DNA from: a virus
IMG/VR virus record: IMGVR_UViG_3300029305_003442
Strand: one strand, 5' to 3'
DNA length: 64,000 nt
In this document: piece after piece, positions 1 to 44,362 of the stretch
Layout of the letters: each line of letters opens with the position of its first letter
Numbering within the stretch: position 1 is the first letter of the stretch
The notes under the pieces: generated by a model
The model's database searches: none
What the model saw: only the letters and a program-made list of their open reading frames with translations
Told to the model about the DNA's origin: nothing
Made by a program: the position numbers and the translations under genes

Positions 1-3000
1 ACTTTAGATACTTTAACATATTCAAGAAAAACAGAGCCCTTTATGGATAATGCTAAACGAATTGATTTGCGTTGGATACATAAAATGCCAGATGGTTCAT
101 TTAAATCAATTACTAAAGCAGATGCCGCAAATTATAATTTTAAAATTTAGTGGTATAGATATCAATTAGGTTCTCCATCATCTGACCAATATTCAGATAA
201 AGAGTGGATTTGGTTATCTGACCAAGAAACAGAAAATGGAAAAAATTATTATACAATTTAGGATGAAGATTGGTTAAATAATAATTAGCAATATAAAGGT
301 AGTGAAAAATATCCCGGTTTCTTTAACACTTGGTTAATTCCAGATGTAGCTTTAAGTACGGAAATGGTTAAAGCAATTATATTTTTTAATGGAAAACCAA
401 TTAGAAGTAATATTGTTATTTTAACAAATGAAAATGAAGTTGTAAGTCGTCCAACAGTAGATGCTTTAGAAGCACTTACAATTCATTGTAATAATGGATT
501 AGATGAAGCTGGGAATCCAATTTATTCTGAAAATTATTTAATTTATAATGAAGGTAATGAATTAATTGATGAATCTTAGGCAAAACAACCACGGCAATTT
601 GAATTAAAATTTGACCCAGAAGTTCCAACAGAAGATGATGAAACTGAAGGTTTAAAATATGCTAGATATGTGGAATGGCGCATTCCAAAAAAGAATACGA
701 TGATTGTAATGCCGCCAGATTATAAAGATAATAATGCTTTAGAAGATATTACAGACCCAAATTATTATATTATTAGACGTAATGGTGTTTTAAACGCAGA
801 TAATAAATATGTTGTTTATAACAAACAATCTTTTAGAATAGATAATTATTATTCTGCTGAAAAATCAAATAATACTGTTTAGTGTACTATTGAAAAAGAA
901 CCAAATACTTTTTATATAGCAACTGTTGATTTATTGTTTGGAGTTGCTGGTACTACTGGAACAGATACAACTTTAGTAATTAATTTTGATGATAGTAGTC
1001 TTGGAGCAATTGATTCTGCTATATCTGGTAATACAATTATTACTGCTAAATTATATGATAGTGAAAATAAAGATATTACACAAACAGTTATTAATCAAGA
1101 TTGTGTTTTTGAATGGAAATGGAAAGGTAAAGAAGAATATCCTCATGAAAAAATACAAATACTTTCTCCGGAAGATTATTCAAATGAATTAAAAGAACAA
1201 GTACAAAAAAATCAATGCGTTATTAGTAATACAAATAATCTACCTTTAGAACTTAATGAATGGAATATTCTTTAGTGTACTGTTACAGGATGGCAAGATT
1301 ATCCTTTAGTAGCTTATTTTGCTATTCCATTAAAAAGAGACCCTGATAATGCAGAAAAGCGCACTTTATTTATGGAGGGCGCCACAAGAATTATCTATGA
1401 TTCTGCTGGTACGCCTTCTTATTATAAAAATCCATATAAATTATTTTATTCTGAAGATATGACAGGAGAAAATCAAGAAGGTGAAATAGAAACTATTAAT
1501 CAAATTAATCAATATTTAGAAGATTAGGATATGATTAAAGATGATTATAGTATACGTTGGTAGCTTTCTTATCATCCAGATTTTTAGACTCTAAATTACT
1601 TACCTTCTATTGGAATTTCTAAAAATTATAATGATGGTTTTAATTATAATATTGGATTAAAAGCTATTAATGTATATGTTAAAGGTTGCGAAGATTATAT
1701 TACAATTAATTGTATAGATAAAAATGGAACTATATTATGGTCTTAGCCTTTATTAATTTTACAAAATAAATATCCATCATCTATGCTAAATAAATGGGAT
1801 GGTTCATTATCTATTGATGAAACGGAAAATGCTATTTTAGCAGCTAAAATTGCCGCAGGTAGTAAAGATTCTGAAAATAGATTTAGTGGTGTTATTATTG
1901 GTGATTGGGGCAATAAAAAAGAATATAAAGAAACTACTAATGCTTCTGTAGCGGAAATTGGAGTTTATGGTTTTCATGAAGGAGCTATGAGTTTTGGTTT
2001 CAAAGAAAGTGGAAAAGCTTTTATAGGTAAAGATACTCGCGGACGTATTCATTTTGATGGAAATGATGGTTCAATTTATTCTTCTGCTTGGATTGCTAAT
2101 TCAGAAGATAATCATAGAGGATTGTATTTGGATATTGATGATGGTAATATTCAAATGCGATAGGAGTATGGTTCTGCAAATATAACCACCTTTATACAAG
2201 TACCTGTAAATACTATTAATTTTAAATCTAATATATATTATGCTTTTCAAGAATATATATTAAGTAAAGAAGGATATAGTGCCAGTAAAACTTATTATGA
2301 ACCATATGGATATAAATTAGTTGATATTGAAGCCGGTGGATATGAACCTGGTATATATTATAAAAGAATAGAATCTTCATCTACTACTGGTTCTGGTGAT
2401 AATGCTGAAAATATTAAAATAACAGAATATGTTTTAGATAATGAATCTTTTAATCCAACTAAAAATTATTATTATGTATCTGCTTTTAAAGAAAGTTCAG
2501 TGAGTGCTTCTTCTTATTAGATTAATAAATATTATATTAAACAAGAGCCAAATAAAGATGAAGCAACAGGTCAAATTTTAATAAATTCATTGATTCCAAA
2601 AGAACAGACAACTTATTATAAACCTTTTTTAACTTATTATGAATAGACAGAAATTTCTCCTAATAAATATATTGATTTAGCAACTAGTTCTAATGAAACT
2701 GATTATAGAAACGTTTATCCTCTATCTATTGGATATGAAAAAAATGTTTATGAGCGTGCATTTAGAGTAAGTTGGGATGGAACTATTTATGTAGAAAATG
2801 GTGAATTTAATGGTGAAATTCATGCTACTTCTGGAACTTTAGGAGATTTGGAAGTAACAGGAACGCTTATAGGTGGAACAATTGTTGGTGGTGATATTTC
2901 TGGTGCTTGGATTAGTGGTAGTACTATTGAAGGTAGTAGAGTATACGCTGATGATTTAATCTGTTATAATGGTAATATTGCTGGTTGGCGCATTACTGAA

Positions 3001-4362
3001 AATTATTTAAGAAATAGTAATGGAACAATTGTTTTATATTCAGATGGTGAGCGTGGAGAATTGGCAAAATTTGGTGGATGGAAAGTTACTAAGCTTGGTT
3101 TTGAAAATCGTCTTGGAACTTATAAAGATGCGAATAATATTCGCACCACAAATAATTTTAGTTATTTAAAAGGCGGATTGATTAGTGGTAGTATTTTAGA
3201 TACGCCATCTGGAGGTATGCTTTTAGCTGGTAAATTTAAATTAGCTTAGAGTTTAAGCCCTGGTTTTGATACTAATACTGGTATTGGAAATTATTTGCTT
3301 ATTCCTGGCACTATTGGTGTTGTAATGTCTGATATTGAAACTAGTCCAGATGCACCAGAATATTATGGTATAGGATTAGAATATGGTGAACCTGTTAAAT
3401 CTTAGATAAAAGCTACAGCTGTTAATGTTGGTATGCGTTATGGAGTTAATCAATCTATATGGATTACTGATAAAACAATCGGTTTAGCATCTAATGATGG
3501 TGATTTGTCATTACATTCAAAAGATACTATTCATGAATATTCAGCTACAAATGTTAATATTGGTGTAAAAACTGGTTCAGGTAATAATGTTGAGTTATAT
3601 CCTTAGTTTGAATCTTATTATAATGGTGGATAGCAAACAGTAACATTAGGAATTTATGCCAATGATGCTATTACTATTGGTCCAGTAGAAAATGTAGGGG
3701 CTTCTTCTTGTAATTTAATTAGAATAGGAGAACAGTCTTTAACTATGGATATTGGAGCATGGACTACTAATTTAAATATTGGATAGAATGCATAGAATAT
3801 TAAAATAGGAGAATTTGCTAAAACTATCATAGAAATTGGTAGTTCGGTTCCAGAGATAAAACTTGGAAGTACTTCCACACCAAAAATAACTATTGGTAAT
3901 ACGGGAGCCGCTGTTACAATATAGAATAATTTGTTGACACCAAATTTATATATTACAAATGGTTTTGAAGCTATTGATGGTAATTATGCTGGAACTATAG
4001 TTATGAATCCTTCAGGTTTTTAGTTATAGGGCGGTTCCTTTACTTTAGGAAAAGATGGAGCTTCTGTTAGTGGAAATATTTATTATAATGGTTCTATTAA
4101 TCTTGAAAATGGATTTAATGTTACTAGTGGTTCAATAAATATTGGCGGCGGAGAAAATGAAGCAATATTTGGTTCTATATATTATTCTGGTAGTGTTAAT
4201 TTAGGTAATGGTTTATAGATAACTACTGGTGATTTAAATATTAAAGGTGGTAGTGCTACTTTTGATAATAATTTAGAAGTAAAAGGAACTGTAACTATTG
4301 GAAGCGGATTGACGGTTGCGGAAGGAGCTACTGTTACTGGAGTTTATGCTACTTTATTATGA
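1..4362 (+). CDS. Large tail-fibre-like virion protein, 5'-partial (starts upstream of window); TAG read as sense codon
   Basis: Frame 1 is open from nt 1 to TGA at 4360-4362; track ORFs 364-579, 670-882, 934-1275, 1783-2163, 2848-3249 are all in frame 1 separated only by TAG. C-terminal Gly-rich beta-repeat motifs (TGTLIGGTIVGGDISGAW; NIGGGENEAIFGSIYYSGSVNLGNG) typical of phage fibres. Confidence 0.6.
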
Positions 4363-10912: not shown

Positions 10913-11941
10913 ATGGCAGATATTGTTTATAATTATGTAAAATTTATGCGCGGTACACCTACTGCGTTTAAAAATCTTGCCTCTAAGAATAAAGATACTT
11001 TATACTTTATTCATGAAGAAGATGCTATTACTGGTTAGCTTTATATTGGTGATATTTTAATTTCTGATAATTTAGAAAATGATAGTAGTGCTATAGTTGC
11101 TAAATTATCTGATTTAGAAGATGTAAATATTACTGGTGTTATTGATAAACAAGTTTTAGGTTATGATGCTAATACTGGTAAATGGATTCCTGTAACTTTA
11201 GAACAAGCTATTGATGTTGCTCCAATGATTGGTGCGACTGCTGATACTGATGGTATTGAAGGTCTTGTTCCTGCTCCAAAAGCTGGAGATGAAGGAAAAT
11301 TCTTGCGTGGTGATGGTACTTGGGCAGAAGCTTTAACAGAATCTGGTGAAACTATTACTATCATTCAAGAAGATGTTTCTAATTTAAAAGAGCTTTTAGG
11401 AGCTCCTGCTTCTGAATCAGAAACAGCAACGGGTATTTATTAGATTTTAGATACAAAAGCTAATACTTCAGATGTTGCTAATTTAATTGCTGCTGAAGTA
11501 GCAAAGTTAGACCATTTAAAAAGAATAACTGTTAATTCTATTGACGATATAGATATTTCAGCTGAAAATGCTGAAGAATATATCTATATGGTTCCATCTA
11601 ATGATTCAGAAGATAAAAATGCTTTTGAAGAATATATGGTAATTAATGGAAAACTTGAAAGATTAGGAACTTATTCTATTGGTTCAGTTGGTGAAGAAAA
11701 TTTAATTAATGCTATTAACACTAACGAATTTGTTATTTCAACTGATGGAACAAAAACTTTAAATTTATTAGAAGTTCCAGCTACAAAAATCGTTGATTTA
11801 GAAAATAATTCTACTTTCACTGTTTTATAGACAGAAGTTGGTACATTAACCACTGAATTAACATAGGTGAATACACGCGTAGCTAGTATTGAAGAAGCAA
11901 TTGCTGAATTACAAGAAAATTCTTCTTGGGGTTCTATTTAA
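10913..11941 (+). CDS. Tail fibre protein (342 aa)
   Basis: ATG 10913; frame 2 through TAGs to TAA 11939-11941; contains the widespread phage-fibre motif GLVPAPKAGDEGKFLRGDGTWAE. Confidence 0.6.
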
Positions 11942-11966
11942 TTTAATATAAAGGAGATAAAAAATT

Positions 11967-14096
11967 ATGGCTAACGTAATGTTTAAAAGAGGCCTATCTA
12001 CTGTCCTTCCTTGGAATAATGCGCAAGATGGTACTTTTTATTTAACTAGTGATACTAATAGATTATATGTTGGTAATGGTACAACTCTTGCTGAACTTAA
12101 TCGTTATGTAAAAACCGTTCAAACAATTAATGATTTAAGTAATTTAAATGCTCATGAAAATGATTTTGCTTATATTCTTGATAAGAATATTTTAGCAGTA
12201 TACGCACCAAATAAAGATAATTCTAATGTATTAGAATGGCATCAAGTAAATGTAAATACTAATACTGATACTTCTGTTACTGAAGTTTCTTTTAGTGATG
12301 GTACTGTTGTTGATGCTACTGATGATAGAGAAAAATCTATTAAAATTGATATGACTTTAATCCAAAAGAATAAAGATGTTCTTACTGGGGTTACAAGTGA
12401 TGCTGGTTCAATTACTCAATCTTTCTATATTCCAGCTTCTGCTTTCTCTACAATGGAAACTAATGCTGCTGTTACTGCCACTGTAAATGTAAGTGATGGT
12501 GTAGCTACCATTAAAAATACTGGCACTGGAGCCGCAGGTGAAGGCTTTACTGTTAGTGGTGGTACTAATATTACTATTAGTGGAGATAGCGCTGGTATTA
12601 CAATTACAAGTAGTGATACTACATATGATGTAAAAGTTGAAGGCACTGAAATTAGTTTAATTGATTCTAATGATAGTCAATCTATTACTAAAGTAAGTAT
12701 TGTAGGCGATAATGATTGGATTGAGACTTCTAATGAAAATGGTAATATTAAAATTACTCATGCTTCTAAAGAAGTTTCTAAACCAACAGCAGTTAACGGA
12801 GGAGAGCTTACAGAAGATAAAAAGTTCACTGTAATTACTGGTTTAACTGTTGATGATAATAATCATGTTACTGGTATTGCTACTACAGAATATGAAGCGA
12901 AAGATACAACCTATGCTCCTGAAATTGGTTTAAATAGTGATAAAGAATTATATGTGTCATTAGTAAATCAAGATGATTTGATTTGGGATTCAGAATCACT
13001 TGATATTTCTCATAAAATTACTATTGATGGCCAAGAATATAACGTAAAACCTGGAGATAATCTTGGTGAAATTTATTCTAAAGGTGAAATTGATAGACAA
13101 TTAAAAGCACTTAATGGTATGACTTATAAAGGTGTGGTCAATAGTGAATCTGAACTTCCAGATGTTGCGCATATTGGTGATACTTATAAAGTTGGCACAG
13201 CTTTTGATATGTCAATTAATGGCATTACCATCAATCTTAAAGTCGGAGATTTATTAATTGTTAATAATTCTGATGAAAATGATGATGGCCAAATAACTGC
13301 TGATATTGCATGGGATAGAATTGAATCTGGTGAAGCTGCTGATACTACTTATGATTTAACTGCTACTAATAATACCATTACTTTAACTGATAGTCATGGT
13401 GCAGCAGATATTATTCCAGTTTCTGGCGATGAAATTATTACTTTAACTGCATCTGATAATGAACTTATAGCAACTCATAAAGAATATGATGAAGCTACTG
13501 CCACTGATGGTGGTGACGAAACTATTAGTGCTGGTGGAACATTTACTGCTGTTACTGGTATTGCTACTGATGGTTTTGGTCATACTACTGGTTTTACTAC
13601 TAAAGATTTTACTATTCCAGGAGCCGATAAAGTTACTGCTGATGCTTCTCTTGTAAAACTTACTTTAAAAGATGCTAATGATGTTGAATAGGGTAGTATT
13701 GATTTAGATGCTGGTGCAGAATTAACTATTACTGGTACTTCTACTGATAGTAAAAATTTAGTAGCTACAATTGCTCATAATAAAGTAACTAAAAATAATA
13801 CAACTGGAACTGTTGCTCCTGTTCATGGTACTGGAACATTTGATGTTGTTGAAAGTGTTACCTATAATGATTATGGTCATGTAACTGGTGTAAAGACTAC
13901 AACAGTGACTCTTCCTGCTGAAACTACTTATTCAATTCATGGTGTGACTGCCGCAGATAATGTTGCTACTTGGGAATTAAAGAATAATTCTGATGAAGTA
14001 ATGGGTAATCCTATTGCAATTACTTCTAGTAGTTTAAAGGTTGCTACTAATGCTAGTTCCTAGGCTACTATTGAACTTGAATGGGGTTCATTTTAA
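11967..14096 (+). CDS. Tail fibre / receptor-binding-like protein (709 aa)
   Basis: AAGGAG SD; ATG 11967; N-terminus MFKRGLSTVLPW...GTFYLTSDTNRLYVGNG resembles the conserved prophage tail-fibre N-terminal domain; frame 3 through TAG 13689-13691 to TAA 14094-14096; followed by strong terminator. Confidence 0.6.
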
Positions 14097-14156
14097 TAAA
14101 TAAATTGGACAAATGATATTAGTTTCTTTGAAAGAAAATTGAAATTTAAAGAAGAA

Positions 14157-14195
14157 AAGGGATGAAGAATTAATTTCTTCATCCCTTATTTTAAT
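14157..14195 (+). terminator. Rho-independent terminator
   Basis: AAGGGATGAAGAA-ttaat-TTCTTCATCCCTT followed by ATTTTAATTT. Confidence 0.6.
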
Positions 14196-14217
14196 TTGTG
14201 CGAAAGGAGAAATTAAT

Positions 14218-17200
14218 ATGGGAAACAATGCTGTTTTTCGTGTTGCTCGTGGATTAGATGAAAAAATAAATCAATTACCGTATGATGATGGTAAAGTTTA
14301 TTTTGCTATTGATACTAAAAAAATTTATTTAGATGCGAATGAACAAAGAACACCAATGGGTGGAAATACTGGTATTTATTATGGTAAAGCCGATTTTACT
14401 GGTGAAATTGGACCAACTTTTATCTTTAAATTTGAAGATATTGATGGTGATAATTTACCTAATATTAATGATTTAATTTTAAATAGCGATGGTAGTTTCT
14501 ATAAAGTTATATAGATTTTAAATGAAGATGGTGAAATCTTTACCGAAAAATTAACAATTGCTGGTTCTGGTGGAGGAGGAGCTAATCCAGATGAACCTAG
14601 AGGAGAAATTAGTGTTGATATAAAATTTGATTCTACTGTAATTGTTGGTGAAAAAATTTTATTAAAAATTAAATTATTAGCAACAGATGCAGAGGGCCAA
14701 AATACTGGTGATGGCCGATATGAAATTAAATTATAGAATATATTAAAAAAGAGCGGTACTTTAATTAATTCTGCAGGAGAAGATGAAGCTATTGAAAATT
14801 TAATTGATATTACTGATTTGTGTGTATTACCTGGAGATTATACTTTTAGAGTGAATTGCTATGCAGATACTGGTAATCTTGAACCTGAAGTAGTACCAAG
14901 AAACATTAAAATTAAAGTAGTTAATTTTACTACTACTTGGAATTATACAGATACTACTATTAATAGTGTTTATTCTGATTTTACTATGACTTGGAGTACT
15001 AATGTTCAAGATGATAGTTATAGAGCTTATATTGTAATTGATGATATTTATCCTTTTGATATTAAAGGAACTTCACTACATATTGCAAAAGAAAATTTAG
15101 CTGATTATGGTTTAAAACATGGCGCTCATAAAATTGAATTACAATCTTTCGCTAAATTTGGTAATAGTTTAACTGAAAAATCAAGTAATAAGATTATAAA
15201 AAATGTAATCTTTTATGATAATGATCCAAATATAACAAATTATATTATTGCTTGTGATTTCTTTGAAACTAATGTATAGCAATATAATACAATTCAATTA
15301 CCAGTAATGATTTATCATGCAAGTAATATAAATGGTACAGCAACAATTACATTTAAAACAAATAATAAAGTAACTGAATTAACAAATTGTAAAAATTTAA
15401 CTAAATATATTTTTACTTATACTCCAGATAAAGCAGGATTTATTCCATTACAATTTTTAAGTGGTGGAACGACATTAGATTTAAATTTAAATGTAGAAGC
15501 TTTAGATATTAATGTTCAAGAAGTTTCTGGTTATGAATTTAAATTTAAAGCAACAGATTTTGCTAATGATGAAGAAGTTAAACAATGGACTTGTAAGAAT
15601 AAGCAAATTGAATTTTCTGAAAATTTTGACTGGATTAATGGCGGTTTAAAAAATGGAGATAATGATATCGGACCTTATTTTAGAATACAAGCTGGACATT
15701 GGATGAAAATTCCTTATAAACTTTTTGAAGAAGATTTAAAAAATACTGGTGCTTGTTTTAAAATGGTTTTTAAAGCTTATAATTGTAGAGATTATGATGC
15801 TACATTTATTAATTGTTTATCAAATGATAAAGGATTGGAAATGAAAGCATAGGGTGCTAATATCATATTAAATTCTAAAAAATCATTAAATACTCGTTAT
15901 TGTGAAGATACATATATTGAATATGAATTTGATATATGCAAATTTAATGAATCTAATAGAAGTGACCAATATTATACAATTTGGTTAGATGGTATACCTG
16001 CCAATGTTGATAATATGGGTATTACAGATTCATTTTTACAAGCTAATGCGCAAGATTTAATTATTGGTTCAGAAGATTGTGATGTATTTATTTATTTAAT
16101 TAAATTTTATAAAAAACATTTAACATTTAATGAACATTTATAGAATTTTATTATTGATGTACCAAATGCTAATGAAATTTTATCAAGATATGTACGTAAT
16201 GATATAATTCTTAAAGATTCTTATGGTAATGAATATATATCTCCTGAATTATTAGCTGAAAAAAATCCAGAATGTAATGTCTATTTGCTTGAAGTGCCAT
16301 ACATTCCAACTTCCAAAGATGATGTAAGTATTCCTAATCCAGATGATCCAAATAATCCTAATAAAGAATGTTGTACTTTTTCTCATTTAAAAGGTAGTAA
16401 AAATCATTTACGTGATTATAGTGGTGTTAAAGTACGCGCGCAAGGTACATCTTCAATGGACTATGGCATAGCGGCTTATAATATGGATATTAAATTTCCA
16501 GAAAAATGGAGTATGGATGAAGAAGCAATTCCAGTAAATTATATGAATATGAAAGTTAATGTTGCTTCTTGTGAAGGAGCAAATAATGCTTTAAATCAAG
16601 AATGGTATAATAGATATTAGCCATATAAAACTCAAAAACGTTTAGCTAATAAAAATGCTCGTGATACAATGGAATTTAAAAATGGCGTTGTATTTATTAA
16701 AGATAATAATACAAGTACAAATAGTGCTCCAACAAATAATAATGCTTTTGTTGAAATTGAAGGATATGTAAATAAACCTTATCATCGTATGTATTCTATT
16801 TGTAATTTAGGTAATTCAAAAAAGAATATAGATGTATTCCATGGTCAAGGTAATTAGTATGAGTGCTGTGTTGAAGTAAATGATAATAATACTAGCGGAC
16901 AACGTATGGTTTCACTTAATGGTTTTTATGAAGCTAATAAAGACTTAGGTGTTGAAGAACATGAAGTAGAATTAAATTTAAGTGATGATTTATTTGATGA
17001 AAACGGTTTTGTTAAACCAGGAGTTGATTGGGGAAAAACCTATGATGCCCAACTTGAAGGCAATGAAAATTTTACTGAAGAATAGAGATGGATTGATAAT
17101 AAAATGCTATGGAATAATGCAATAATAAAAGAAGGTATTTATGGTTTTAGATATTGCATTGATAAAGATGATTTTATTGCATCTGAAGAATTTCCTACTT

Positions 17201-20200
17201 ATGATGATTATGAATAGGAAATTAGTAATAGATTTTTAAGATTAGTTAGATGGTTTGTAAAAAATAATCCTTCTCAAGCTACTAACGCTCCATTAGAAAA
17301 TCCAATTGAATTTCCAACTTATATAATTAAAGGTATTAAAGAAACCGCTTATGCTAACTATAATGCTACTGAAATATTAGCTGGTACAGAAGTTAAAGAA
17401 GGACTTACATTTACAGTAGATTCTTCTGCCTATAGAGTTGCAAAAATGCTTAGAGAGAGTGAAAATTATTTAATTTTAGACTCTATTTTCTATCATTATA
17501 TTTTTATTGAACGACACAGTATGTTAGATAATGTTGCTAAGAACACGTTCTGGAATACTGAAGATGGTATTCATTGGGAATTAACTAAAAACTATGATAA
17601 TGATACAGCGGATGGAATTAATAATAGTGGACATTTAGCACTTGATTATGGCGTTGAAATTATGGATAATACAACTGATGGAAAAGAAATATTTAATGCT
17701 AGACCTTCATCATGGTTACATTTCGCACACGGATGTTTATCATTAAGAGAAAAAATGTATTCTGCATTATTTAATACAAAGGATGATACTAATGCTTGGT
17801 CTGCTAATAAATACTTAGAATTATTTGAAAGTTGGCAAAATGCTATTCCAGAAATTTGTTGGATTCAAGATTTTTATAGAAAATATTTTAGACCTAATGA
17901 TATTTATGGTGATGCATCTTATTTAGCGCGTTTAGCGAGTGGTAAAAAAACACATCAAAGAAAATAGTATGAACTTTATCAAGAACAATATCTTGATTCT
18001 GAATATAAAACATGTGCTAGACGTGGTGAAGCTATTTCCTGGCGTTCTATGTAGCCAAGTGATCCTGAAATTATGATTGATAATAAATATGTTTTAGGAG
18101 CTACTGTAAAAATGTATGCTGATGGATATTTTGCTATGGCTCTTGCTAATGGAGCTGGTACAGAAGAATCTGTAAATATTCATATAAGAGGTAAAAAAGG
18201 TTAGTTAATTAATTTCTCAAAATCTTAGGAAACAAATTTTAATGATGCGACTTGTTATATATATGGTCCAAGTTTATATCAAGAATTTATTCATGCTGAA
18301 TCAATATATCCTAGTTATATTACAGCTACAAATGCAACTAAATTAAGAAAATTTAGTCTTGAACCAATGTATAATAGTTAGAAAATTATGCTTAAAACTA
18401 GCTTATCTTTTGGAGATAATTTAGAAGAATTAATTTTAAAAGATTGTTTAAGTATTCTTGATGAAACTAGTGGAAAACCAACCAGTATTGACTTAAATTT
18501 AAAGAATTGTGTACGCTTAAAAAAGATTGATACAACTAATAGTACTTTATTTGCAAGTTATGAAATTGCAGATGGTGCTCCATTAGAAGAATTTTATATT
18601 CATCAACCAACTGGTTTATATTTATAGAATTTAAGATATTTAAATAAAAATAAATTCAATATTGAAAATTATGATTCATTAACATCTATTTAGATTAATA
18701 ATATTGATTATAATGATATTAATAGTATTGATATTTTAAATAATGTTTATAGACATAATAATTCAATTATATATAATTTAGAAAATGTAAAATGGAAGTT
18801 TAATAATGAAGATAATATCACCGATACTAATATTCCACTATTGGATTATTTGTTAACTCAATCATTAGCAATTGCTGGCAAAACGAAAGCTTTATCTTTA
18901 ACAGGTTCAGCAATTATACCATATGAAGCATATGATGGAATTAACTTATTAAGTTTATATGAAAAATATGGATTAGATTCTGGTGAAAAAGATAATACTT
19001 ATCCAAATTTAATTTTAAATTTCCTTGATAATAATGAAAATTCTAGATTATATACTATCAATATTGAAAATGGTGATGGTTAGATTGTTTGGACAAGATA
19101 GGTAGATAATTTTAATACATTAACAAATGAGATTTTATCCAATAGTGCTTTGGGAGCTTTTGACGCAACTGCTGCAATTGCTAAATCTTATAGCAATGAA
19201 TTTGTTTATAATTTTGCCAATTCTTGGGAATATATAATTAATAATGAAATTAAACCTATAGAACCATTAGATGAATAGGGAATGTATTAGTATTTAGATA
19301 TGTCTAAATTATAGAATGTTAATGAATCTAATATTACTATTCGTCCAGTATATATAACAGATACTCGTTATTATACAATTCAAATATATGATGTGTGGGG
19401 AGAAAAAATTCATGAAGCAAAAGTTGAATATTTAGCTTCTTTTGATGAAGTGCGTCCTCCAGTTCTTCCATTAATGAATGATTCTAATTTGGAATTAGAA
19501 AAGACATATTATTTAAAAGGATATGGAACTGTTAGAACTGATAATAGTATCATTAATGAACAAGATTGGAAAGCCACAGCTGATTTAATTTTATATACAA
19601 AATTTGAAGAAAAAAATGTATATGATATTGATTATTCTTCTTATTTAGATATAGATACAACTGGTACTGTATTAAATGGTTTAAAGAAAAATAAAAATGA
19701 TGAATATATTTATTAGGGGCAGAAAATTGTAATTCCAAAGTCTATTCAAACGATAGCAACTAAGGCTTTTGGTTTTGAACAAAACGATAAAGCACAAAGT
19801 AGTAAAACTAATTTAACAAAAGTTTTTTTTGAAACAAATAGTAATTTAATGTATATTAATAAAGCTGCTTTTGGTTATTCTAACCTTGAATATTTTGAAT
19901 TTGTTAATTCTATTGAAAGAATTGGTGAACAAGCTTTTAGAGGATGTAATTTATAGGCTATTAATTATAATGGTATATTAAAATTACCAACTTCTTTAAA
20001 ACAAATTGGTTAGCATGCTTTTAATAGTTCTTTCGGTTCAATAACATAGAATGTAGAATTATTCGTGCAGATCCCATCAACTATTATAGAAATAGATAGT
20101 TATGGTTTAGCTCACTGGGGACCAATAAAAGCTGATATTGCTATTGGTTCTTCCAATAGTTTTTCTAATTTAAGTTTAGAAAAAACTCAAGGTGGAGTAC

Positions 20201-20370
20201 CAATTATAAGTAGTAACTATGGTAATGATAAAGATATTTGTAATATTTATTTTTATACTAAAAATTATAAAGATAATAGCATTATTAATGGTATTCTTAT
20301 TGGTGAATTTTTTGATGATAAAAATTTAAGTAGTAATTATAATATTACTGTTCATTATATTGATTCGTGA
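14218..20370 (+). CDS. Giant virion protein (2050 codons, about 25 in-frame TAG) with central CotH-like (atypical kinase fold) domain and C-terminal BspA-type leucine-rich repeats
   Basis: GAAAGGAG SD; ATG 14218. All ten track ORFs 14218-20370 are frame 1, and every inter-ORF gap was translated and contains only TAG; TGA 20368-20370. CotH-like motifs: VKVRAQGTSSMDYGIAAYNMDIKF and FIERHSMLDNVAKNTFWNTEDGIHWELTKNYDNDTADG. LRR_5-like repeats: KAAFGYSNLEYFEFVNSIERIGEQAFRGC...LKQIGQHAF. Confidence 0.6.
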
Positions 20371-20612: not shown

Positions 20613-20637
20613 AATTGCATATAATATAGAAATAAAT

Positions 20638-20678
20638 ATTGATAGAGAATAATTTAAATTATTCTCTATCAATATAAT
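20638..20678 (+). promoter_or_regulatory. 36-bp perfect palindrome abutting a TATAAT -10 element, 23 nt upstream of gene 20701
   Basis: ATTGATAGAGAATAATTTAAATTATTCTCTATCAAT (20638-20673) then TATAAT 20673-20678; candidate operator/late promoter. Confidence 0.35.
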
Positions 20679-23651: not shown

Positions 23652-24821
23652 ATGGCAGCTGATGATAAAATATTAGCAACGTAGATTAGTACAAATTCTT
23701 CTTCCTGGTATCAAAGATTAAGAGCTATTTAGGCAAATAATAAAACAGGTATAGGCGGGTCTGCTTTATAGCAGACCGCCGACCCTGGTATCACTTCAGG
23801 AACGAAGATGACAGCAACACATATTAATAATTTTATTAATGCTTTAACAGCTTTAAAATCAAATGTATTTTTAGCTTATGCGGATTGGACTAATTATACT
23901 CCTTCTACTGTTTCTAGTGGTGGAAAAGCTAATGCTTCTACTACATAGACTAAAATTAATAATATGTTAACATCACTAGAAAGTATATGTAGTAATTGTT
24001 AGACATATAGTACAAATAGTTATTCTAATACTTGTTCAAATAATGCTACAACTAGTTATTCAACCTATTCGGAAAGTATTGATAAATATAATTATTCTAA
24101 TACATGTAAAACTACTTATAATTCCACAGAATCTACAAACTCTACTTGGAGTGAAAGCTGTAAAACAACTTCTAATAGTACTAATAGCTATTGTTCTGAT
24201 GCTAATTGTAGCGCTTATAGCGAGAATGAAACTTGTGCAGAATTTTATGTTGGTAATAGCACTTATTCTACAGATAGCACTAGCTCAAATTCTACTTATG
24301 GAGTTGGAGATTCTACTTAGGCAACAGATGCTACTTCTGTTTGTGCTACTTTATCAACTTATAATGATGAAATATCTTATAGTACAGATTGTAGTGATGG
24401 TTGTTGGGATTGTACTTTTCATTCTTATTGTCCTGCAGCTGAAGTAGCTACTTATAGCGTCGGAGAGTGTTCAACTAATGCTACTAATTCTGAAAATTCA
24501 ACAGAAGGAGTTTGTAGCACTTGTAGTACTAATTCTACTGATTTTTATTGTAATGAAAACTCTTGTACTGAACATACAAATAGAGGTACATATTCAAATC
24601 ATTCACAATGTAGTACTTATGGAAAAAACAGTACATATAATGATACTTGTCAAACTTGTGAGACTGATTCAACCACATCAAATACAACTTATACTTAGTC
24701 AAATTCTACATATACTAACACTAATGATGGTTATAGTACATATTCAAAAAAAGCTACATATGGAACATATACTAATACAAGTGGTAATTCAACATATTAG
24801 ACTTATACGGTAAAAAATTAA
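23652..24821 (+). CDS. Cys/Ser/Thr/Asn/Tyr-rich low-complexity protein (389 aa, 22 Cys, 9 in-frame TAG); candidate substrate of adjacent radical-SAM enzymes
   Basis: AAAGGAGG SD; ATG 23652; frame 3 verified codon by codon to TAA 24819-24821 with only TAG interruptions. Track ORFs 24043-24447 and 24478-24813 are other-frame shadows of this low-complexity gene. Confidence 0.6.
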
Positions 24822-24851: not shown

Positions 24852-26210
24852 ATGTTACAAGATAGAGAAACAATTATTTTATATACTACAGCAGTATGTA
24901 ATTTAAATTGTACTTATTGTTTTATTGATAAAAATCCAAGTTTAAAAAAGATAGATCAATGGCTTGATGATAGTTTTTTAAAAACTCCAGATTATTATTT
25001 TGAATATGCAAAAAAAGCCGTTTTACAAGAAAAACTAAAAGAAGTATAGATTTGGGGTGGAGAACCTTTTTTGGGTATGCATAGAGCCTATGCAACAATA
25101 GATAAATTTATTAATTATTTTCCAAATTTAAAAAATTTTATGACTTCTACAAATTTTGTATCTCATTGTTTTTTTGAAGAATTTTATGGACTTCTTGATA
25201 TTTTTAGAAAGCATCCAAATAGAAATTTTACATATAGTTTATAGTTATCATTAGATGGTGTAAAGGAAATAAATGATATTAATAGAGGTAATGGAGTTAC
25301 TGATCGTTTTATTATTAATTTTGAAAAATTTGTTAAAGAATTACAAACTTTATTACCAAACAATTTAACATTAAAAATGCATTTAAAGCCCACTATTGAT
25401 ACAAATTCTTTGAAAAAATTATAGACTAAAGAACAAGTTTTTGAACAATTTATCTTTTTTGAAAGCTTCAATGAAGTATATTTGAAATATAATAAAAAAA
25501 ATAATTTACTATTTTCACTTCCAATTCCTAATACAGCTTGCCCATCTCCTCATACTCAAGAAGATGGAATAATGTTTGCAAATTATTGTAAAATAACAAG
25601 AGAGCTTGAAAAAGAAAATAAAAATAATAAAATTTTTAAATTTTATAATAATATTACAAGCTTTACTCCAAGAAGAAAAATTCAATATGACAAACTTTCA
25701 TTATCAGGATATTGTCAAGGTCATTGTGGTAATGGAAAAAGAGCTATTGGTCTTTTACCTAACAATATGGTTTCTTGTTGTCATAATGGTTTTGTTGATT
25801 TGCTAGCTGAATATAAAAAGAATGTATTAACAAATAGTGAACATATGGATAATGTTACTATTGAAAAAAGTTTATTTAAAAATAAACGTAATACTTTAAT
25901 TTTCCCTTATGATAGTAAAGAATTTGAAATGTATCAAAAACAATTAGAAGTTTTTTATCAAAATGATGATACTGCCAAAATTTCTAATTGTGCTTCTTTA
26001 ATTAAATTATTGGCTGATTTTGAACAAATTGATAAAAAATATCAAGATAAAAAAGAAGCTGTTAAAGGTGCTTATTTTATTTTTAATACTACATCATATT
26101 GTGTTAGAGATAATTTAGGTGTGACTGGAAGCATCTATATGTATCCTGTTGGTTTAATTAAATTATTGCTAAATGGAGCTAGAGAATATATTGAGGAAGG
26201 ATGTAATTAA
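24852..26210 (+). CDS. Radical SAM / SPASM-domain enzyme #1 (452 aa, 3 in-frame TAG)
   Basis: AAAGGAG SD; CNLNCTYC (CxxxCxxC) at residues 16-23; IWGGEPFL; SLDGVKEINDINRG (anSME-like). C-terminal Cys cluster CPSPH...CQGHCGNGKRAIGLLPNNMVSCCHNGF consistent with SPASM/twitch auxiliary cluster. Track ORFs 24852-25049 and 25482-26210 share frame 3. Confidence 0.75.
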
Positions 26211-27599
26211 ATGGCAAAGTGTTTAAATTTTTAGGAAGAAAAAGATGTTATTTTATGGTCATTAATTAATGATACATTTGGAAGACTTTTTTCTAAAGAA
26301 AAAAAAGAAGATATTGAACATGATATGGGGTTAGAAATTTATATAACCCCTGAATGTAATTAGAATTGTTCTTATTGTTATTTATGTAAAAATGGTGATG
26401 AACTTTATCCTAAAGAATTAAGAAATCCTACAATAATTTTAAATAATTTAAAAATTATGTTAGATTATTGTATTGATAATAATTGGAATCCTGGAAGATT
26501 TGATTTTTTTTCTGGAGAAATTTGGGATACTGATTTAGGTTATAATGTTTTAAGCATTACAGAAGAAGCAATAGAAAGAGGTTTTCACCCTAGACTAATT
26601 GTAATTCCATCAAATTTTAGTTTTATTTTAAATGAAGAAGCTAAAAATAGAGTTGAAAAATTTATGGAAAAATGTAGACAATTTAATATAAAGCCATGTT
26701 GGTCTTGTTCTAATGATGGTTTATTGTTAGATTTAGAGACAAGACCATTTAATTCAGATGAATTAAATGCAAAAAAAGATACTGAAGATTATTATAAAAA
26801 ATTATTTGAATTTTGTAAAAAATGGAATTTAGGTTTTCATCCAATGGTGGCAGCACACGGAATTGAAAAATGGTCAGAAAATTTTTTATGGTGGATGTCA
26901 GAATTAAAGAAATATAAATTTGAAAGAAATTCTTCAATAATGTTTTTAGAAGTTAGAAACGATGATTGGACAGATGATAAAATTTATCATTATTTAAAAT
27001 ATTTAAATACTAGTATTAATTATTTAAATGATGAATGTATTAATTTAAATACATTGTCTTTTGAAGATTATGTTAGAAAAACTAATAAAAATATTAAATA
27101 CAATTATACACCTGTTATTTTAGAAAAATCAAGTTTATAGCCTGGATGCACTATTCATAGATCTTTAGTTATTCGTTTAGGTGATTTAGCAATAGTTCCT
27201 TGTCATAGAACTTCTTATGAAGAATTTATTATAGGACATTTTAAAGTAGAGAATAATAAAATTATAGGAGTTACAGCTAAAAATATTCAAATAATGAATT
27301 AGGTATGGCTAAATAATATGAGTGGTAATGCTAAATGCACTAATTGTCCTTATAGCAATTACTGTATGAAAGGATGTTATGGTTCTTAGTTTGAATCTAC
27401 TGGAGAATTATTATATCCAATAGAATCAGTATGCAATTTATATAAAGCAAGAGCAATATTTATTTTTTATAAATATTTAAAAATGGGTATTTATAGAGAA
27501 GATAATCCCGAGGATAAAAAATATTTTGATTTTATTCAATCAATTAAAGATACGAAGGAGTTTAAAAAATGGTACAAAATTGTTTAGGAATTGATTTAA
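26211..27599 (+). CDS. Radical SAM / SPASM-domain enzyme #2 (462 aa, 4-5 in-frame TAG)
   Basis: ATG immediately after upstream TAA (translational coupling); ITPECN(Q)NCSYCY CxxxCxxC; C-terminal CTIHRSLVIRLGDLAIVPCH...AKCTNCPYSNYCMKGCYG SPASM-like Cys motifs; frame 3 with track ORF 26457-27140; TAA 27597-27599 if TAG 27585 is read through. Confidence 0.7.
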
Positions 27600-28168
27600 T
27601 TAATATTTATGAAAATCTTATCATAAATGGATTAAATGTAGAATTAGCAAAAGATATTGAAAAATATTTGATTTATTTTTTAGACAATAACACTAATGAA
27701 AATTAGTTATTATTATATAATTTATTAAATATTTTAAAACGTCAATAGAATACATCAATTCTTCTAAATTTTTTAATTCAAGAAGTTGAATTAAAGTTAT
27801 TAAGATTAAGTTTTTCTAATAATGATATAAAAAATAATAAAGATTGTTATAATATTTCATCTTGTCAAAAAAATGAATCTAAAGAAGAATTAAAGAAAAT
27901 TTTAAAAGTAACTAATAAAGATTTATTCCCTCCAAAAGGGACTACAACTCGTATTATTAATAAAAGAAAAGAAGAAAATGAAGAACATGAATATGTTTTA
28001 GAGATAGATGATCAAGGTAATGTTTTAGAAATTTTAGAACATTATATAACAAAAAATGATGCAGATTCTATTGATATATTAAATGATTCTCCTTTAAGCA
28101 AACTTAAAGAAAAATATCTTAAAGAAGATAAAGAAAATAATTCTTTAACAGAAAATGATTTAGAATAA
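27569..28168 (+). CDS. Hypothetical helical protein (199 aa, 2 TAG) within rSAM cassette
   Basis: AAGGAG SD 27555-27560; ATG 27569; frame 2 to TAA 28166-28168. Confidence 0.45.
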
Positions 28169-28193
28169 TATTAATAATTTAAATATTTCTAAA

Positions 28194-29270
28194 ATGGGAT
28201 TAGGAATTATGCGTCATAATTCTAATCAACAATATACAAAACAACTAATAGAATATGCTTTAAATAATAAAATTAATTATTTTGAAGCTTGTGATTTCTA
28301 TTTACAAAACGCTTGTGAAATACGTCTTGGGGATGCTTTAAAATAGCATCCTCGGACTTCATATAAATTATGTGATAAACTTCCATTATCTACAATTCCT
28401 TATTTTATTCAAAAAAATAAAAATTGGAATTTAAATGATTATTTTAATAATCAATTAGCAAAATGTAGAACTGATTATTTTGATGTTTATTTGATTTAGG
28501 CTTTAGATGAACGTAATTTTAATTACTTGGAAAAATATCAAATTATTGATTTCTTTTTAAAACAAAAAGAACAAGGAAAAATTAAATTATTGGGTTTTTC
28601 TTTTCATGGAAAAGTTGATATTTTAAAAAAATTATTAGAAATGAAATGTTGGGATATCGTTTAGTTTCAATTAAATTATTATGATTGGATTTTAGGTGAG
28701 GCGAAAGAATTATATTTTTTAACAAAAGAATATGATTTACCTATTATTACAATGGGACCAACTAAAGGCGGATTATTAATAAATAATTTACCTAAAAAAT
28801 CATTAGATAGATTAAAAGAAAACAATATTAATCCAGTCTATTTATGTTATTCTTTTTTAGAAACTTTAGACAACGTTAAAATTATTTTATCAGGAGCAGA
28901 AACTTATGAAATGATTAAAGATAATTTAAATTATTTTGAAAATGAATCTCATAAATTAACTCCAGAAGAGTGGTAGCATATTAAACAAAATATTCAAGAT
29001 TATCAAGAATAGAGTTTAATTCAATGTACGGGATGTCGTTATTGTGTTCAAAGATGTCCTGCTAATTTACCAATAGATAAAATTTTTAAAGAATATAATA
29101 ATTTTATTCAATCTAAAGATTTATAGTCAAGAGAATTTTTATATTAGAATATTCATAGTTCTAACTCTACACAGAATTGTAAAAATTGTGGTCAATGTGT
29201 AAAAATTTGTCCGCAACATTTAAATATTCCAGAAATTTTTCATAAACAAATTTTCCCAGTAAGGAGATGA
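28194..29270 (+). CDS. Aldo/keto-reductase-family oxidoreductase fused to C-terminal 2x[4Fe-4S] ferredoxin domain (358 aa, 8 TAG)
   Basis: ATG 28194 in frame 3 with track ORF 28752-28976; C-terminal CTGCRYCVQRCP and CKNCGQCVKICP ferredoxin motifs; TGA 29268-29270. Confidence 0.6.
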
Positions 29271-40466: not shown

Positions 40467-40692
40467 TTATGTCAATAGCCTCATCTTCATATTCATATTT
40501 TAATTGATTAGGTAATTCATTACGATAAAAAGTATATTTCCTTTTACAGGTAGGACAAAAATAAACATACTGTTCAGGATAAGTACATAAAACTTTACCA
40601 GTACTTTTTATTTCTTCATTACAATCTTCACAATAAAAGCTATCTATATAGATAGCTTTTACATATCGTCTTTTAATTTTCATCTTCTTCAA
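40453..40692 (-). CDS. Small zinc-ribbon protein (79 aa)
   Basis: CEDC...CPTC pairs. Confidence 0.4.
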   Translation of the reverse strand: MKKMKIKRRYVKAIYIDSFYCEDCNEEIKSTGKVLCTYPEQYVYFCPTCKRKYTFYRNELPNQLKYEYEDEAIDINEEV

Positions 40693-43180
40693 TTCCTCCT
40701 TGATAACGTTCCGAAGTTAATTTTAAATCAGTTTTATTTACAATTTCTTCAATTTTATACAACTGATGACCTGGCGTACTATTGTATTTTTTAACAATAA
40801 AATTATCTCCAGAACGAATACCCATAACCGCAATCATATTACCACGATTAAACCAAGATTTTTCTACAATCTTTTTAGTTCCATCAGGATTTTTGATAGA
40901 AATTTGTTTATCAAATAAAGAAAAATATTCTTTTCTAAATTTAACTTCTACAACTCCATGAGTTGTTAATAACGTTACTGTGCTTTTAACCTTATTTTTT
41001 GCTATACAGGTTCCGCAAATTTTATGAAGTTTAAACATATGAATTTCTTTTCCTCCACGAGCAAACACTTGGTCTACTATTGGTTCTTCTGGCAAAGCAA
41101 AGAAATCAACAAATCCATATTTATTATGATTTACATCAATTAATTCATGTTCGTGATAATAAAAACATAAAACTTCCATCTCCCAAGCAGAAATTGTACC
41201 TGAAGCATATTTCTCCCAATCTTCAAGAAAAACAGCATCATTTATTTTTACTAAGATTTCATCTTTATTTTCATTAATCCATGTTCTAAAAATATCCATC
41301 CAATTTTGATAAATTTTTTCCCATTGCTTAATATTCATAAAGAAAATTGTATCTTTTGTTATAATCAAATTATCACAATGTACTTCAATAAGAAAATTAA
41401 TAGCTCTTTCATCTAATTTATATAATTCATTATTAAATTTACAAATTGCTTTTAAATAACGATTAAATTCATATACTCTTCTTGCTAAAATTTGTTCTTC
41501 AGTTTCAGATGGAAGTAGATTATATTTAATTAATCCACCCATATTTTGTAGAGTAATTCTTTTTTTTCTATCGCAAGTTTCCCAAATATACCAAGCCATA
41601 CAAGTTTTACGTTCCATCATATCATCAAAAGCTCCACCCTTAATCAATGAAATCATAGCTTGCTTGCCTGGATTTACTTTATTCAAAAAATCTCGCGGAG
41701 ATACATAAGGTCTATGTTCAATGATAGATGCTACGACATCATCACCAACATTTAATAATCCTTTTAAACCAAAAAGAATTCTATTGTTCTCAGCATCTGG
41801 CGCAAAGCCATATTTAGATTTATTAATATTTGCTAAACTAACTTTAATACCAGCAGCTTGAATATCACCAATAGCTTTCGCAATTTTACCATAATCAGTA
41901 CTTGCGCCAGCTTCTTCATCAGTTGCGCCACTATTAACAATTAAACAAGCTGTATTCCAATAGATAGGATTAAATTTAGTTGCCAATAAAATTGTTTGAA
42001 TACCAACAAATGAATAAGGTAATGAATGATTTAAACTAAAAGCATATCCAAGTTGTGGAGCGACCGCAACTTCCCAGACATAATCTGCTATATTAGAATT
42101 TCCAATTTTTTCATACACTTGCGCTTTTAATTCCGGAATTTTTGACATCTGTTTTTTTGCTACTATTTTACGAGCAGCGTTTGCTTCACCTAAAGTAAAA
42201 TTAGCAACCTCCATCAAAATTTCCATCATTTGCTCTTGGATAGGACAGCAACCATAATATTTATCACAATGTTTATGCATTAACTCAATCATTTTTTCAG
42301 GCAAATGATTAAATTTCATTTCTTTATCAAAAATATTAATTCCTGATTTTTGAATGCGAGCATATCTATCTTGCTGACTTTCTTTACCTTTTTCAGACAT
42401 AAGTCTCATCATAGCATTTGCGGCAGTCATCTCTAAAGGATTTTGTGGTTTAAGTTTTTTCGCAATTGCTAATCCAACACCACCACTAAACTGAAATACA
42501 TCCAATATATCACCTGCGGCTAAATGATTCCAAATATAATTTTCAGATGTGTCAATTATTTCTGGATGAATATATTTATTATAAGTTTCTCTTAAACCAA
42601 TATTTTCAATTAAATTATCCTCATGTAACATTTCAAAACATTTAATAATTTTATCAGAAACTTCAGTTACAAGAAAATCATATTTAGTATCACCTGCTGC
42701 TTCCGCCGCATGTAAGTCAAAACAAGTAATTAAATCTCCATTTGGTGCTCTCATAAAAGATGCTGTATCAAATGGATTTTTATCATAAAGAATTACACCA
42801 GAAGCATGAATGCCACGTTTATTTACTAATCCCTCTATTGAAATGATAATATCAACCAATCCAGGATATTGATTAACTTCTTTTATAAAAGTTGTAACTG
42901 GTTTTCTATCTTTTTCTTCATCACCATATAATACTTCTGAAATAGACCATAAAAATCCACGTTCTTGAGGAATTAATGATGACATATATTGCGCTACATC
43001 TACATCTATTCCTTCTGGATATTCTTCACTTCTATAACCACGACAAGCTGTAAGAACAGCTGATTTAGTTCCTTCAGTTCCAAAAGTTGCTACCTGAACC
43101 AAACCAAATTCTCCACGTTCTTTACGAATTGCTTCAAAAATCGCTGGTCTTTTACTTGGAGCCAGGTCTATATCAATATC
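40673..43180 (-). CDS. dnaE: DNA polymerase III alpha (DnaE-type) exon 2 (835 aa; polymerase core), begins DIDIDLAPSKR...
   Basis: Reading frame of track ORF 40673-43102 is open upstream to 43180, where DIDID follows the exon-1 motif RFLNKERAELP; RGIHASGVIL palm motif; no TAG. Confidence 0.75.
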   Translation of the reverse strand, partial: DIDIDLAPSKRPAIFEAIRKERGEFGLVQVATFGTEGTKSAVLTACRGYRSEEYPEGIDVDVAQYMSSLIPQERGFLWSISEVLYGDEEKDRKPVTTFIKEVNQYPGLVDIIISIEGLVNKRGIHASGVILYDKNPFDTASFMRAPNGDLITCFDLHAAEAAGDTKYDFLVTEVSDKIIKCFEMLHEDNLIENIGLRETYNKYIHPEIIDTSENYIWNHLAAGDILDVFQFSGGVGLAIAKKLKPQNPLEMTAANAMMRLMSEKGKESQQDRYARIQKSGINIFDKEMKFNHLPEKMIELMHKHCDKYYGCCPIQEQMMEILMEVANFTLGEANAARKIVAKKQMSKIPELKAQVYEKIGNSNIADYVWEVAVAPQLGYAFSLNHSLPYSFVGIQTILLATKFNPIYWNTACLIVNSGATDEEAGASTDYGKIAKAIGDIQAAGIKVSLANINKSKYGFAPDAENNRILFGLKGLLNVGDDVVASIIEHRPYVSPRDFLNKVNPGKQAMISLIKGGAFDDMMERKTCMAWYIWETCDRKKRITLQNMGGLIKYNLLPSETEEQILARRVYEFNRYLKAICKFNNELYKLDERAINFLIEVHCDNLIITKDTIFFMNIKQWEKIYQNWMDIFRTWINENKDEILVKINDAVFLEDWEKYASGTISAWEMEVLCFYYHEHELIDVNHNKYGFVDFFALPEEPIVDQVFARGGKEIHMFKLHKICGTCIAKNKVKSTVTLLTTHGVVEVKFRKEYFSLFDKQISIKNPDGTKKIVEKSWFNRGNMIAVMGIRSGDNFIVKKYNSTPGHQLYKIEEIVNKTDLKLTSERYQGGIEEDEN

Positions 43181-44362
43181 CGTTTATTGGACTATATTTT
43201 TCATAATGACTTACTAAGAGCATTTTACTTCAGTCATTACTAGAACATCTTTCAGACGGTGCTTATCTCCGCCTTACATAAATAGTCTCTACACATTTAA
43301 TCTTATTTTTCTATTTGTTTCCAATAATAGCCTTTATATAAAGTTCCATTTTTAATCGCTTTATCTAATTGAGTGTGTCCTTTCATTCCTAAGAATTGTA
43401 AGACTGCGGTTTTAGCATTAAATATTTGAATTAAATTGTAATTTTCATCATACATTTCAATTCGTTTTCCATTTAATGCTTGATTACCACTTTTACCATA
43501 CATACCATTTTTTTCGCCAGCGGTTTTACCTTTACTATTTACAGACATTTTCTACTTAGACTCTTCTGTATGTTTTTTACCATACATTCCATTATTAGAA
43601 CCTTTTGTTTTTTCACTCATTTTTTGTTTAAACTCTTCAGTTCTATAAGGAGAGTTGTCTCTTTCAAATTCTGCCCAATAAGATAAAAATGCTTTAGTTT
43701 TTTCACTATGGTATTTTCCATACATTCCATTATTCTTACCACGATTTACTTCACTTAATTTTCGGCACAAAACTTCTTTTTCTTCTGGTGTATATCCTGC
43801 GGTAGTGTTTCCTCCACAACCGCCCTCATGAATATTATAAAACAATGGATTTGATGTGGCATTATATAAGGCAATAAATTGTTTTTCTTTTTCACTATTT
43901 TCTAAATCATTTTTAGAAACAAATAAAATGGACTTTGTAAAACAGTCTTTTCCATATTTGGCAATTTCTTTTTTCAATTCTTTTCCGCTGCCTAAATATG
44001 AATCATCTAATTCTCCATAATGTTTTCCGATATATTTCATACCATTTATATTATTAGTAGTTAAATAAATATAATGTTGTTTCATTTAAACAACCCCCTT
44101 TCATATATATTTAACTTTTAGAATTAGACAATGACCTGACTTTGTCCAAGATTTTTAGCACGGTATTCCCAATCTAACCTTTTTTAGGTCATAGGGTCTC
44201 TTAGTCAGTTGATTCGCATTTATATAACATAAATCTTATTTCGCTGATACCGTTAGCCTGCGGTTACTCGTCTCGCCGGTCGGATGACCGGGCCGCCGCA
44301 GACACCCATTAAGCAATGGTTAATGTTCTTTTTTTACAACTGCCCAATATCAATATTAGACT
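43181..44362 (-). ncRNA. Group I self-splicing intron (about 1182 nt) in dnaE, carrying a homing-endonuclease ORF
   Basis: 5' exon ends ...GAACUGCCU (44363); intron-internal guide GGGCAGUU (44345-44338) pairs with AACUGCCU giving U.G at the splice site; intron ends with G (43181) before exon-2 GAUAUUGAU; GC-rich structured segment 44150-44330 and 43200-43300 flanks the ORF. Confidence 0.65.
43303..44085 (-). CDS. Intron-encoded GIY-YIG homing endonuclease with NUMOD3-like repeats and C-terminal DNA-binding region; in-frame TAG at 43552-43554
   Basis: YIYLTTNNINGMKYIGKH GIY-YIG motif; repeated NNGMYGK(K/Y)H; track ORFs 43552-44085 and 43303-43548 are in the same frame separated by TAG + one codon. 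Confidence 0.7.

Follow-up and report, generated by a model that had tools for sequence, protein, structure and literature searches.

Wu et al. (2017) reported targets of diversity-generating retroelements (DGRs) of about 2,000 aa which carry weak CotH and Laminin_G_3 motifs and occur in phage contexts, Roux et al. (2020) presented a model of a viral target, 2,284 aa long, that contains a CotH-like kinase domain, and Benler et al. (2021) pointed to phage-borne CotH kinase domains, which they called "currently unstudied". The family member of Hankyphage (Bacteroides phage p00, BK010646), a DGR target of 2,245 aa, is described as a putative tail fibre (PMC6199706, PMC12135933) and was seen by mass spectrometry in particles precipitated with polyethylene glycol (PMC12135933); it corresponds to the DGR target classes f1 (Wu 2017), PC_00012 (Roux 2020) and 'domain group 3' (Macadangdang 2024). 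In the literature on proteins of this type, CotH active-region motifs are found beside carbohydrate-binding motifs as well as leucine-rich repeats (LRRs), and our search of that literature found no biochemical or mechanistic study of phage CotH. Here, a related gene is described from a stretch of 64,000 nucleotides of viral DNA (IMG/VR record IMGVR_UViG_3300029305_003442), hereafter the window. Its positions 14218-20370 encode a protein which is probably a giant tail fibre of modular build (a receptor-binding protein) from a large gut phage. It is a non-DGR, LRR_5-tipped, TAG-recoded addition to an already noted and very widespread family.

As in Hankyphage, the window protein exceeds 2,000 aa and its gene lies in the tail module; the Hankyphage gene comes after those of the tape measure, the baseplate hub and the minor tail protein. 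The order of domains is also the same, an Ig/lectin region being followed by the CotH-like domain, and the Hankyphage protein bears the motifs QGTSS, VDQRAKN (a D-x-x-A-K-N loop) and YDGDT (Y-D-x-D-T). It matches the family profile built from homologs of the window protein with an E-value of 2.7e-45 and is found by direct BLAST (1.5e-21 and 1.7e-6), at an identity to the window protein of only about 24%. Differences concern the C-terminus, which in Hankyphage is a C-type-lectin variable region diversified by a DGR with its reverse transcriptase (RT) and template and variable repeats (TR/VR), whereas the window protein ends in LRR_5 repeats, and the codon usage, since the window gene, unlike that of Hankyphage, is TAG-recoded. 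A DGR at the window locus was ruled out, as it has neither a TR/VR pair nor an RT: the window holds no TR/VR-like repeat, including at the 3' end of the gene, and tblastn with the Hankyphage RT gave zero matches in it. The LRR_5 tip would take the place of the diversified C-type lectin tip of Hankyphage-type relatives.

The integrity of so large a frame was assessed together with its codon assignment. An earlier note, prepared from the sequence of this DNA without database searches, had described a single frame-1 reading frame with about 25 TAG codons and a TGA stop, and this is borne out by the codon count and by collinear full-length homologs. The frame holds 2,050 sense codons, its 25 internal stops are all TAG, and the previous in-frame TAA or TGA lies upstream at 14140; the ATG at 14218 is preceded by the Shine-Dalgarno sequence AAAGGAG (~14203-14209), and hairpins flank the gene on both sides (Table 1). 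In-frame TAG codons occur in all large open reading frames (ORFs) of the + strand between 43 and 33438, at 2 to 25 per ORF, whereas the genes of the - strand mostly have none and otherwise few, which is the pattern of a phage recoding TAG in its late genes. At conserved TAG sites the residue of the homologs is Gln in 19 of 22 cases at aa 1250, 12 of 26 at aa 801 and 8 of 15 at aa 545, and over all homologs Gln makes up 18% of the TAG-aligned positions against a background of 2.8%. From these codon patterns, the phage is predicted to recode TAG as Gln in its late genes.

The opposite view, that TAG is a true stop and the frame consists of several short genes or a decayed pseudogene, would accommodate the 25 TAG codons and the fragmentation of homologs by public gene callers; it would also fit the lack, within the window, of a suppressor tRNA (anticodon CUA): according to ARAGORN, these 64 kb, beyond which the genome continues, contain no tRNA. 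It is nevertheless hardly credible. No in-frame TAA or TGA interrupts 6.15 kb at 28% GC, the same TAG pattern recurs in all late genes, and Gln is enriched at the TAG-aligned positions. Moreover, an exhaustive profile search recovered P0114 (2,012 aa), collinear with residues 1-2017 at 54% identity, while P0139 and about 20 more proteins of roughly 2,000 aa align collinearly over their full length, and fragmentary database homologs overlap one another across all proposed domain junctions. The window protein retains 157 of the 158 positions which are invariant among its 22 closest full-length relatives, and promoter-like sites within the ORF are not in excess (53 observed, 58 in shuffled sequence). 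Several genes with internal starts, which the earlier note had named as a possible refutation, are excluded by the full-length homologs, the retained invariant positions and the lack of excess promoters, and 14218-20370 reads as one intact gene.

Fold assignments were taken from models of two homologs, P0004 and P0193, which are 34% and 52% identical to the window protein. The modelled architecture runs from an anchor through Ig-like repeats, a ConA-like lectin, the CotH-fold domain, a beta-sandwich, an internalin-like LRR and middle domains to the LRR_5 tip; the three parts recognised in the earlier note (fibre-like N-terminus, CotH-like region, C-terminal LRRs) stand in the right order, and several domains had been missed. 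The anchor shows 46-54% identity to relatives, and within its first ~40 residues lies the motif F-x-RG...DG-x-Y...T-x-x-(L/I)Y, common to the two upstream ORFs 10913-11941 and 11967-14096, which suggests a common attachment module of three adjacent fibre genes; it would presumably dock the window fibre and its two neighbours on the baseplate. The following Ig-like region is all-beta in the P0004 model, with Foldseek matches to macroglobulin/FnIII-type domains. The ConA-like domain is likely to be glycan-binding; it resembles in fold the lectin-like jelly-roll of the clostridial neurotoxin Hc-N and NTNH and other ConA-like lectin/glucanase domains, has no sequence similarity to them, and the likeness to Hc-N and NTNH allows no inference of binding specificity. 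The model of P0193 aa 435-1296 has a pLDDT (predicted local distance difference test) of 83.6, and for the middle domains the fold comparison gave no informative match. A PHROGs search of the whole protein returned function-unknown families only.

At the C-terminus, the BspA-type LRRs announced in the earlier note are confirmed by a significant hidden Markov model (HMM) match to LRR_5 (PF13306) and by the LRR_5 fold. This tip is present in 17 of the 22 closest relatives and is the least conserved module, at 14-39% identity to six relatives. BspA-type LRR_5 surface proteins (T. pallidum TpLRR, pneumococcal PcpA, Bacteroides LRR proteins) are bacterial, whereas the LRR_5 of the window is the putative tip of a phage fibre. 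Probably together with the lectin domain, it would recognise a host surface ligand and set host specificity.

For the core domain, a CotH-type atypical protein-kinase-like fold was found in the models of homologs, and the CotH assignment proposed in the earlier note holds by modelled fold, not by HMM: the suggested Pfam scan of the translation with TAG as Gln recovers LRR_5 and does not recover CotH. The gathering score of PF08757 (CotH) is 23.8 bits; the best scores among 46 homologs were 21.3, 20.1, 15.6 and 14.1 bits, all sub-threshold, and none of the 22 full-length relatives matches at E<=0.01. These four sub-threshold matches are collinear with the protein, and in each of them the DNRAKN loop aligns with position ~186-190 of the CotH profile. 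The CotH spore-coat kinases (PF08757; B. cereus CotH 5JDA, B. subtilis CotH) share 11% identity with the window domain and are stand-alone enzymes of ~360 aa, whereas the window domain is embedded with large inserts (aa ~901-1005) in a putative virion fibre of 2,050 aa.

Conservation is concentrated in this core, whose two kinase lobes are the most conserved modules of the protein (50-75% identity to six relatives). The motifs quoted in the earlier note were found where it had placed them, with VKVRAQGTSS at aa 737 and WELTKNYDNDTADG at aa 1120, as well as IGEQAFRGC at aa 1902 and IGQHAF at aa 1930 in the LRR tip. Invariant columns, in alignments of 22 relatives at domain level and of 22 at full length, include Q-G-T-S-S, K-x-N-V-A-S-x-E, D-N-x-x-K-N-T-F-W and Y-D-N-D-T-x-D-G, and the D-N-x-x-K-N loop is present in all 150 near-full-length representatives, which are mutually less than 50% identical. 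From D1104 (LDNVAKN) to D1127 (YDNDT) there are 23 residues, a distance equal to that between D228 and D251 of B. subtilis CotH; according to Nguyen et al. (2016), as cited in PMC7821199, D228Q or D251A abolishes the activity of that enzyme. The same spacing of 23 residues is kept in a prophage copy of Clostridium transplantifaecale, which retains the core and differs in its N- and C-terminal modules. The invariant motifs argue for a functional active site. Because the catalytic-type loop and the D-x-D are invariant across the family, we infer that the CotH-fold core is a catalytically competent, Mg/nucleotide-dependent phosphotransferase.

The presence of CotH in a virion protein had been called unusual in the earlier note, which proved wrong: the family, already present in the literature, comprises 2,407 representative clusters (50% identity, E<=1e-3, exhaustive profile search), mostly of 2,000-2,800 aa, and occurs on at least 549 IMG/VR contigs. 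Among genomes, most carriers are gut Clostridia, cultured isolates of Clostridium among them, and a few are Bacteroidales; the host of the window phage is probably a gut Firmicute rather than Bacteroides. The window itself had no match by blastn against the phage collection, and an IMG/VR search with its own segment returned zero close relatives. Of 121 family loci, 25 (~21%) have a DGR-type RT no more than 10 kb away, so that the DGR feature defines a subset of the family, and the DGR-linked proteins of the literature may be a minority of it.

What the kinase-like domain would do was weighed among several readings. The one preferred, if only tentatively, is that, while virions assemble in the infected cell, it would add phosphate to its own fibre or to partner proteins of the virion; an intracellular site is favoured because ATP is available there, and a role in assembly by analogy with CotH, which phosphorylates coat proteins in spore-coat assembly. 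With similar caution, the invariant putative CotH-type site may be taken to make the family a new kind of enzyme on tail fibres, a virion-borne phosphotransferase and not a depolymerase, whose target would be a polymer of the host surface during adsorption or, during assembly, partner proteins of the virion. Several points weigh against the proposed kinase-bearing fibre. Tail fibres function extracellularly, where ATP is scarce. The protein is known from its gene sequence, its folds were read from homologs, and the N-terminal anchor matches no Pfam model. Neither the full window protein nor aa 656-1300 alone matches PF08757 at E<=10, and PDB sequence and profile searches with the window protein, two family profiles and two distant homologs linked no CotH chain. 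Finally, D1104, N1109, D1127 and K779 were picked out as putative active-site residues by motif, spacing and conservation.

Part of this evidence would also suit a domain without catalysis, either a pseudokinase which binds a nucleotide, a phosphorylated sugar or a surface protein, or a rigid scaffold. Besides the limiting ATP around an extracellular fibre and a similarity to true CotH kinases which stays under HMM significance, the domain has binding modules, lectin and LRRs, on either side, and a parallel may be drawn with the fungal CotH invasins which serve as host-receptor ligands, the CotH proteins of Mucorales being ligands of GRP78 and integrin (PMC9973265). Against such a reading, which is credible at a fairly low probability, stand the D-N-x-x-K-N loop and the D-x-D, which are invariant or nearly so in at least 150 representatives less than 50% identical, and the rank of the CotH-like domain as the most conserved part of the protein. 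Pseudokinases typically lose the catalytic loop and residues of the D-x-D type. The invariant active-site motifs are also compatible with a virion-borne enzyme at work during adsorption, which would phosphorylate or nucleotide-modify a cell-wall glycopolymer or surface protein held by the lectin and LRR modules between which the domain lies; many tail fibres bear enzymatic domains, and cellulosome-borne modules of CotH-like type may point to relatives of CotH outside the cell. We know of no precedent for kinase activity in phage adsorption, the supply of extracellular ATP or another donor is uncertain, and the sequence gives no pointer to a substrate; this option is credible, with a rather small chance. 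A kinase delivered into the host at infection to manipulate its signalling had been put forward in the earlier note; Roux et al. (2020) proposed a similar manipulation, and phage Ser/Thr kinases which target host proteins do exist, e.g. in T7 and 933W (PMC8008677). Delivery is unlikely, because the domain sits mid-chain in a 2,050-aa fibre, between the anchor and spacer and the distal binding modules, with no evident cleavage or ejection signal. The gene, moreover, adjoins fibre genes and not those of internal or ejection proteins, and to our knowledge fibres are not injected.

Table 1. Position of the fibre gene, its modules, putative active-site motifs and flanking elements in the window
Feature	Position	Strand	Remarks
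Whole gene, probable giant modular tail fibre	14218..20370	+	2,050 codons + TGA; 25 in-frame TAG, predicted as Gln
N-terminal anchor module, aa 1-125	14218..14592	+	motif F7..R11-G12..D24-G..Y..T33..Y37; ends in Gly-rich linker GSGGGG
Ig-like beta-sandwich repeats, aa ~126-460	14593..15597	+	model of homolog P0004; phrog_14959, phrog_24896
ConA-like lectin jelly-roll, aa ~461-655	15598..16182	+	fold from homolog models
CotH-like atypical kinase-fold domain, aa ~656-1260	16183..17997	+	variable insert aa ~901-1005
N-lobe motif Q742-G-T-S-S746	16441..16455	+	invariant; candidate nucleotide-binding loop
K779 and E786	16552-16575	+	invariant; after QGTSS motif
Putative catalytic loop D1104-N-V-A-K1108-N1109	17527..17544	+	invariant in family alignments A4, A5
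Putative metal-binding D1127-N-D1129	17596..17604	+	invariant
Beta-sandwich after kinase-like domain, aa ~1261-1375	17998..18342	+	model of P0193 aa 435-1296
Internalin-like LRR, aa ~1376-1540	18343..18837	+	
Alpha/beta and beta-rich middle domains, aa ~1541-1800	18838..19617	+	P0193 model
C-terminal BspA-type LRR_5 tip, aa ~1801-2050	19618..20367	+	
Two upstream fibre-like genes	10913..14096 (10913-11941, 11967-14096)	+	same N-terminal anchor motif
Terminator-like hairpin	14157..14187	+	13-bp stem + T run; ends upstream fibre gene
Palindromic hairpin, 18-bp	20636..20675		3' of stop codon

The neighbours of the gene are poorly annotated structural genes, one of which matches a PHROG 'tail protein' family, and radical SAM was the only domain recognised by Pfam among them. 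In a related locus, the gene of homolog P0024 comes after a tape-measure gene of 7,520 aa on a 189-kb contig; the PhageMin_Tail tape-measure-type protein annotated with 7,520 residues at L001 1-883 (ENA contig STEW19-1 scaffold_9, 189 kb) is exceptionally long. At the start of the window, 43-4362 (+) encodes a 1,439-aa protein with 23 TAG codons and C-terminal Gly/Asn/Ile-rich repeats, beta-helix-like by eye, which may represent a further tail spike or fibre; Pfam and PHROGs give no match for it. About 3 kb downstream of the fibre gene, 23652-24821 (+) encodes a 389-aa protein, with 8 TAG codons, in which Ser, Thr, Asn, Cys and Tyr are extremely abundant; this Ser/Thr-rich protein is a possible substrate of the kinase-like domain. 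Three genes on the + strand come directly after it, up to 29270: a radical-SAM-type gene at 24852-26210 with matches to Pfam Radical_SAM and phrog_1802, a second at 26211-27599 with a CxxxCxxC motif, and at 28155-29270 a gene which by eye is aldo/keto-reductase-like with Fe-S Cys motifs. Within the late structural block, the segment 23652-29270 resembles a cassette for the maturation of a peptide or protein.

The TAG recoding is specific to strand and module, distinguishing the + strand block (1-33438) from the - strand block (33802-63983), and the GC skew flips at ~33-34 kb. The genes of the - strand appear by eye to serve replication and nucleotide metabolism, with NrdD, a split Pol III alpha, RecJ, NAD ligase and a GyrA-like protein. 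The DNA polymerase III alpha-like gene appears to be in two parts, at 40673-42985 and 44309-45733 (-), PHP-domain N-terminal and C-terminal by eye; the ~1.3 kb between them contain a 260-aa ORF (43303-44085), and the split may be due to an intron, an intein or a homing-endonuclease insertion. Between the genes of 36407-61486 (-) an AT-rich motif of ~58-64 nt with the core TATAAATATTATA[TC]CATATTTTT...AAAAATCAA is present in 6-7 copies upstream of - strand genes (repeat families D1, D2), and it is probably a phage-specific early/middle promoter or regulatory site.

Taken alone, the window locus adds a further member to the family, no discovery in itself, and leaves the kinase question no more tractable than before. 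The family to which it belongs is very common in gut phages, including the globally distributed Hankyphage, and what it conserves best is a domain of kinase fold whose putative active site looks intact. The literature covers the DGR-linked subset, while about 80% of the sampled loci, the window among them, have no DGR RT within 10 kb. The same core joined to an LRR_5 tip indicates that the kinase-like core is separable from DGR biology and suggests that it serves fibre function more generally. If the core were active, it would represent a new enzymatic activity among phage receptor-binding proteins, and if the proposed phosphotransferase role is true, thousands of gut phages would need phosphorylation for their fibres to mature or for the host to be recognised.

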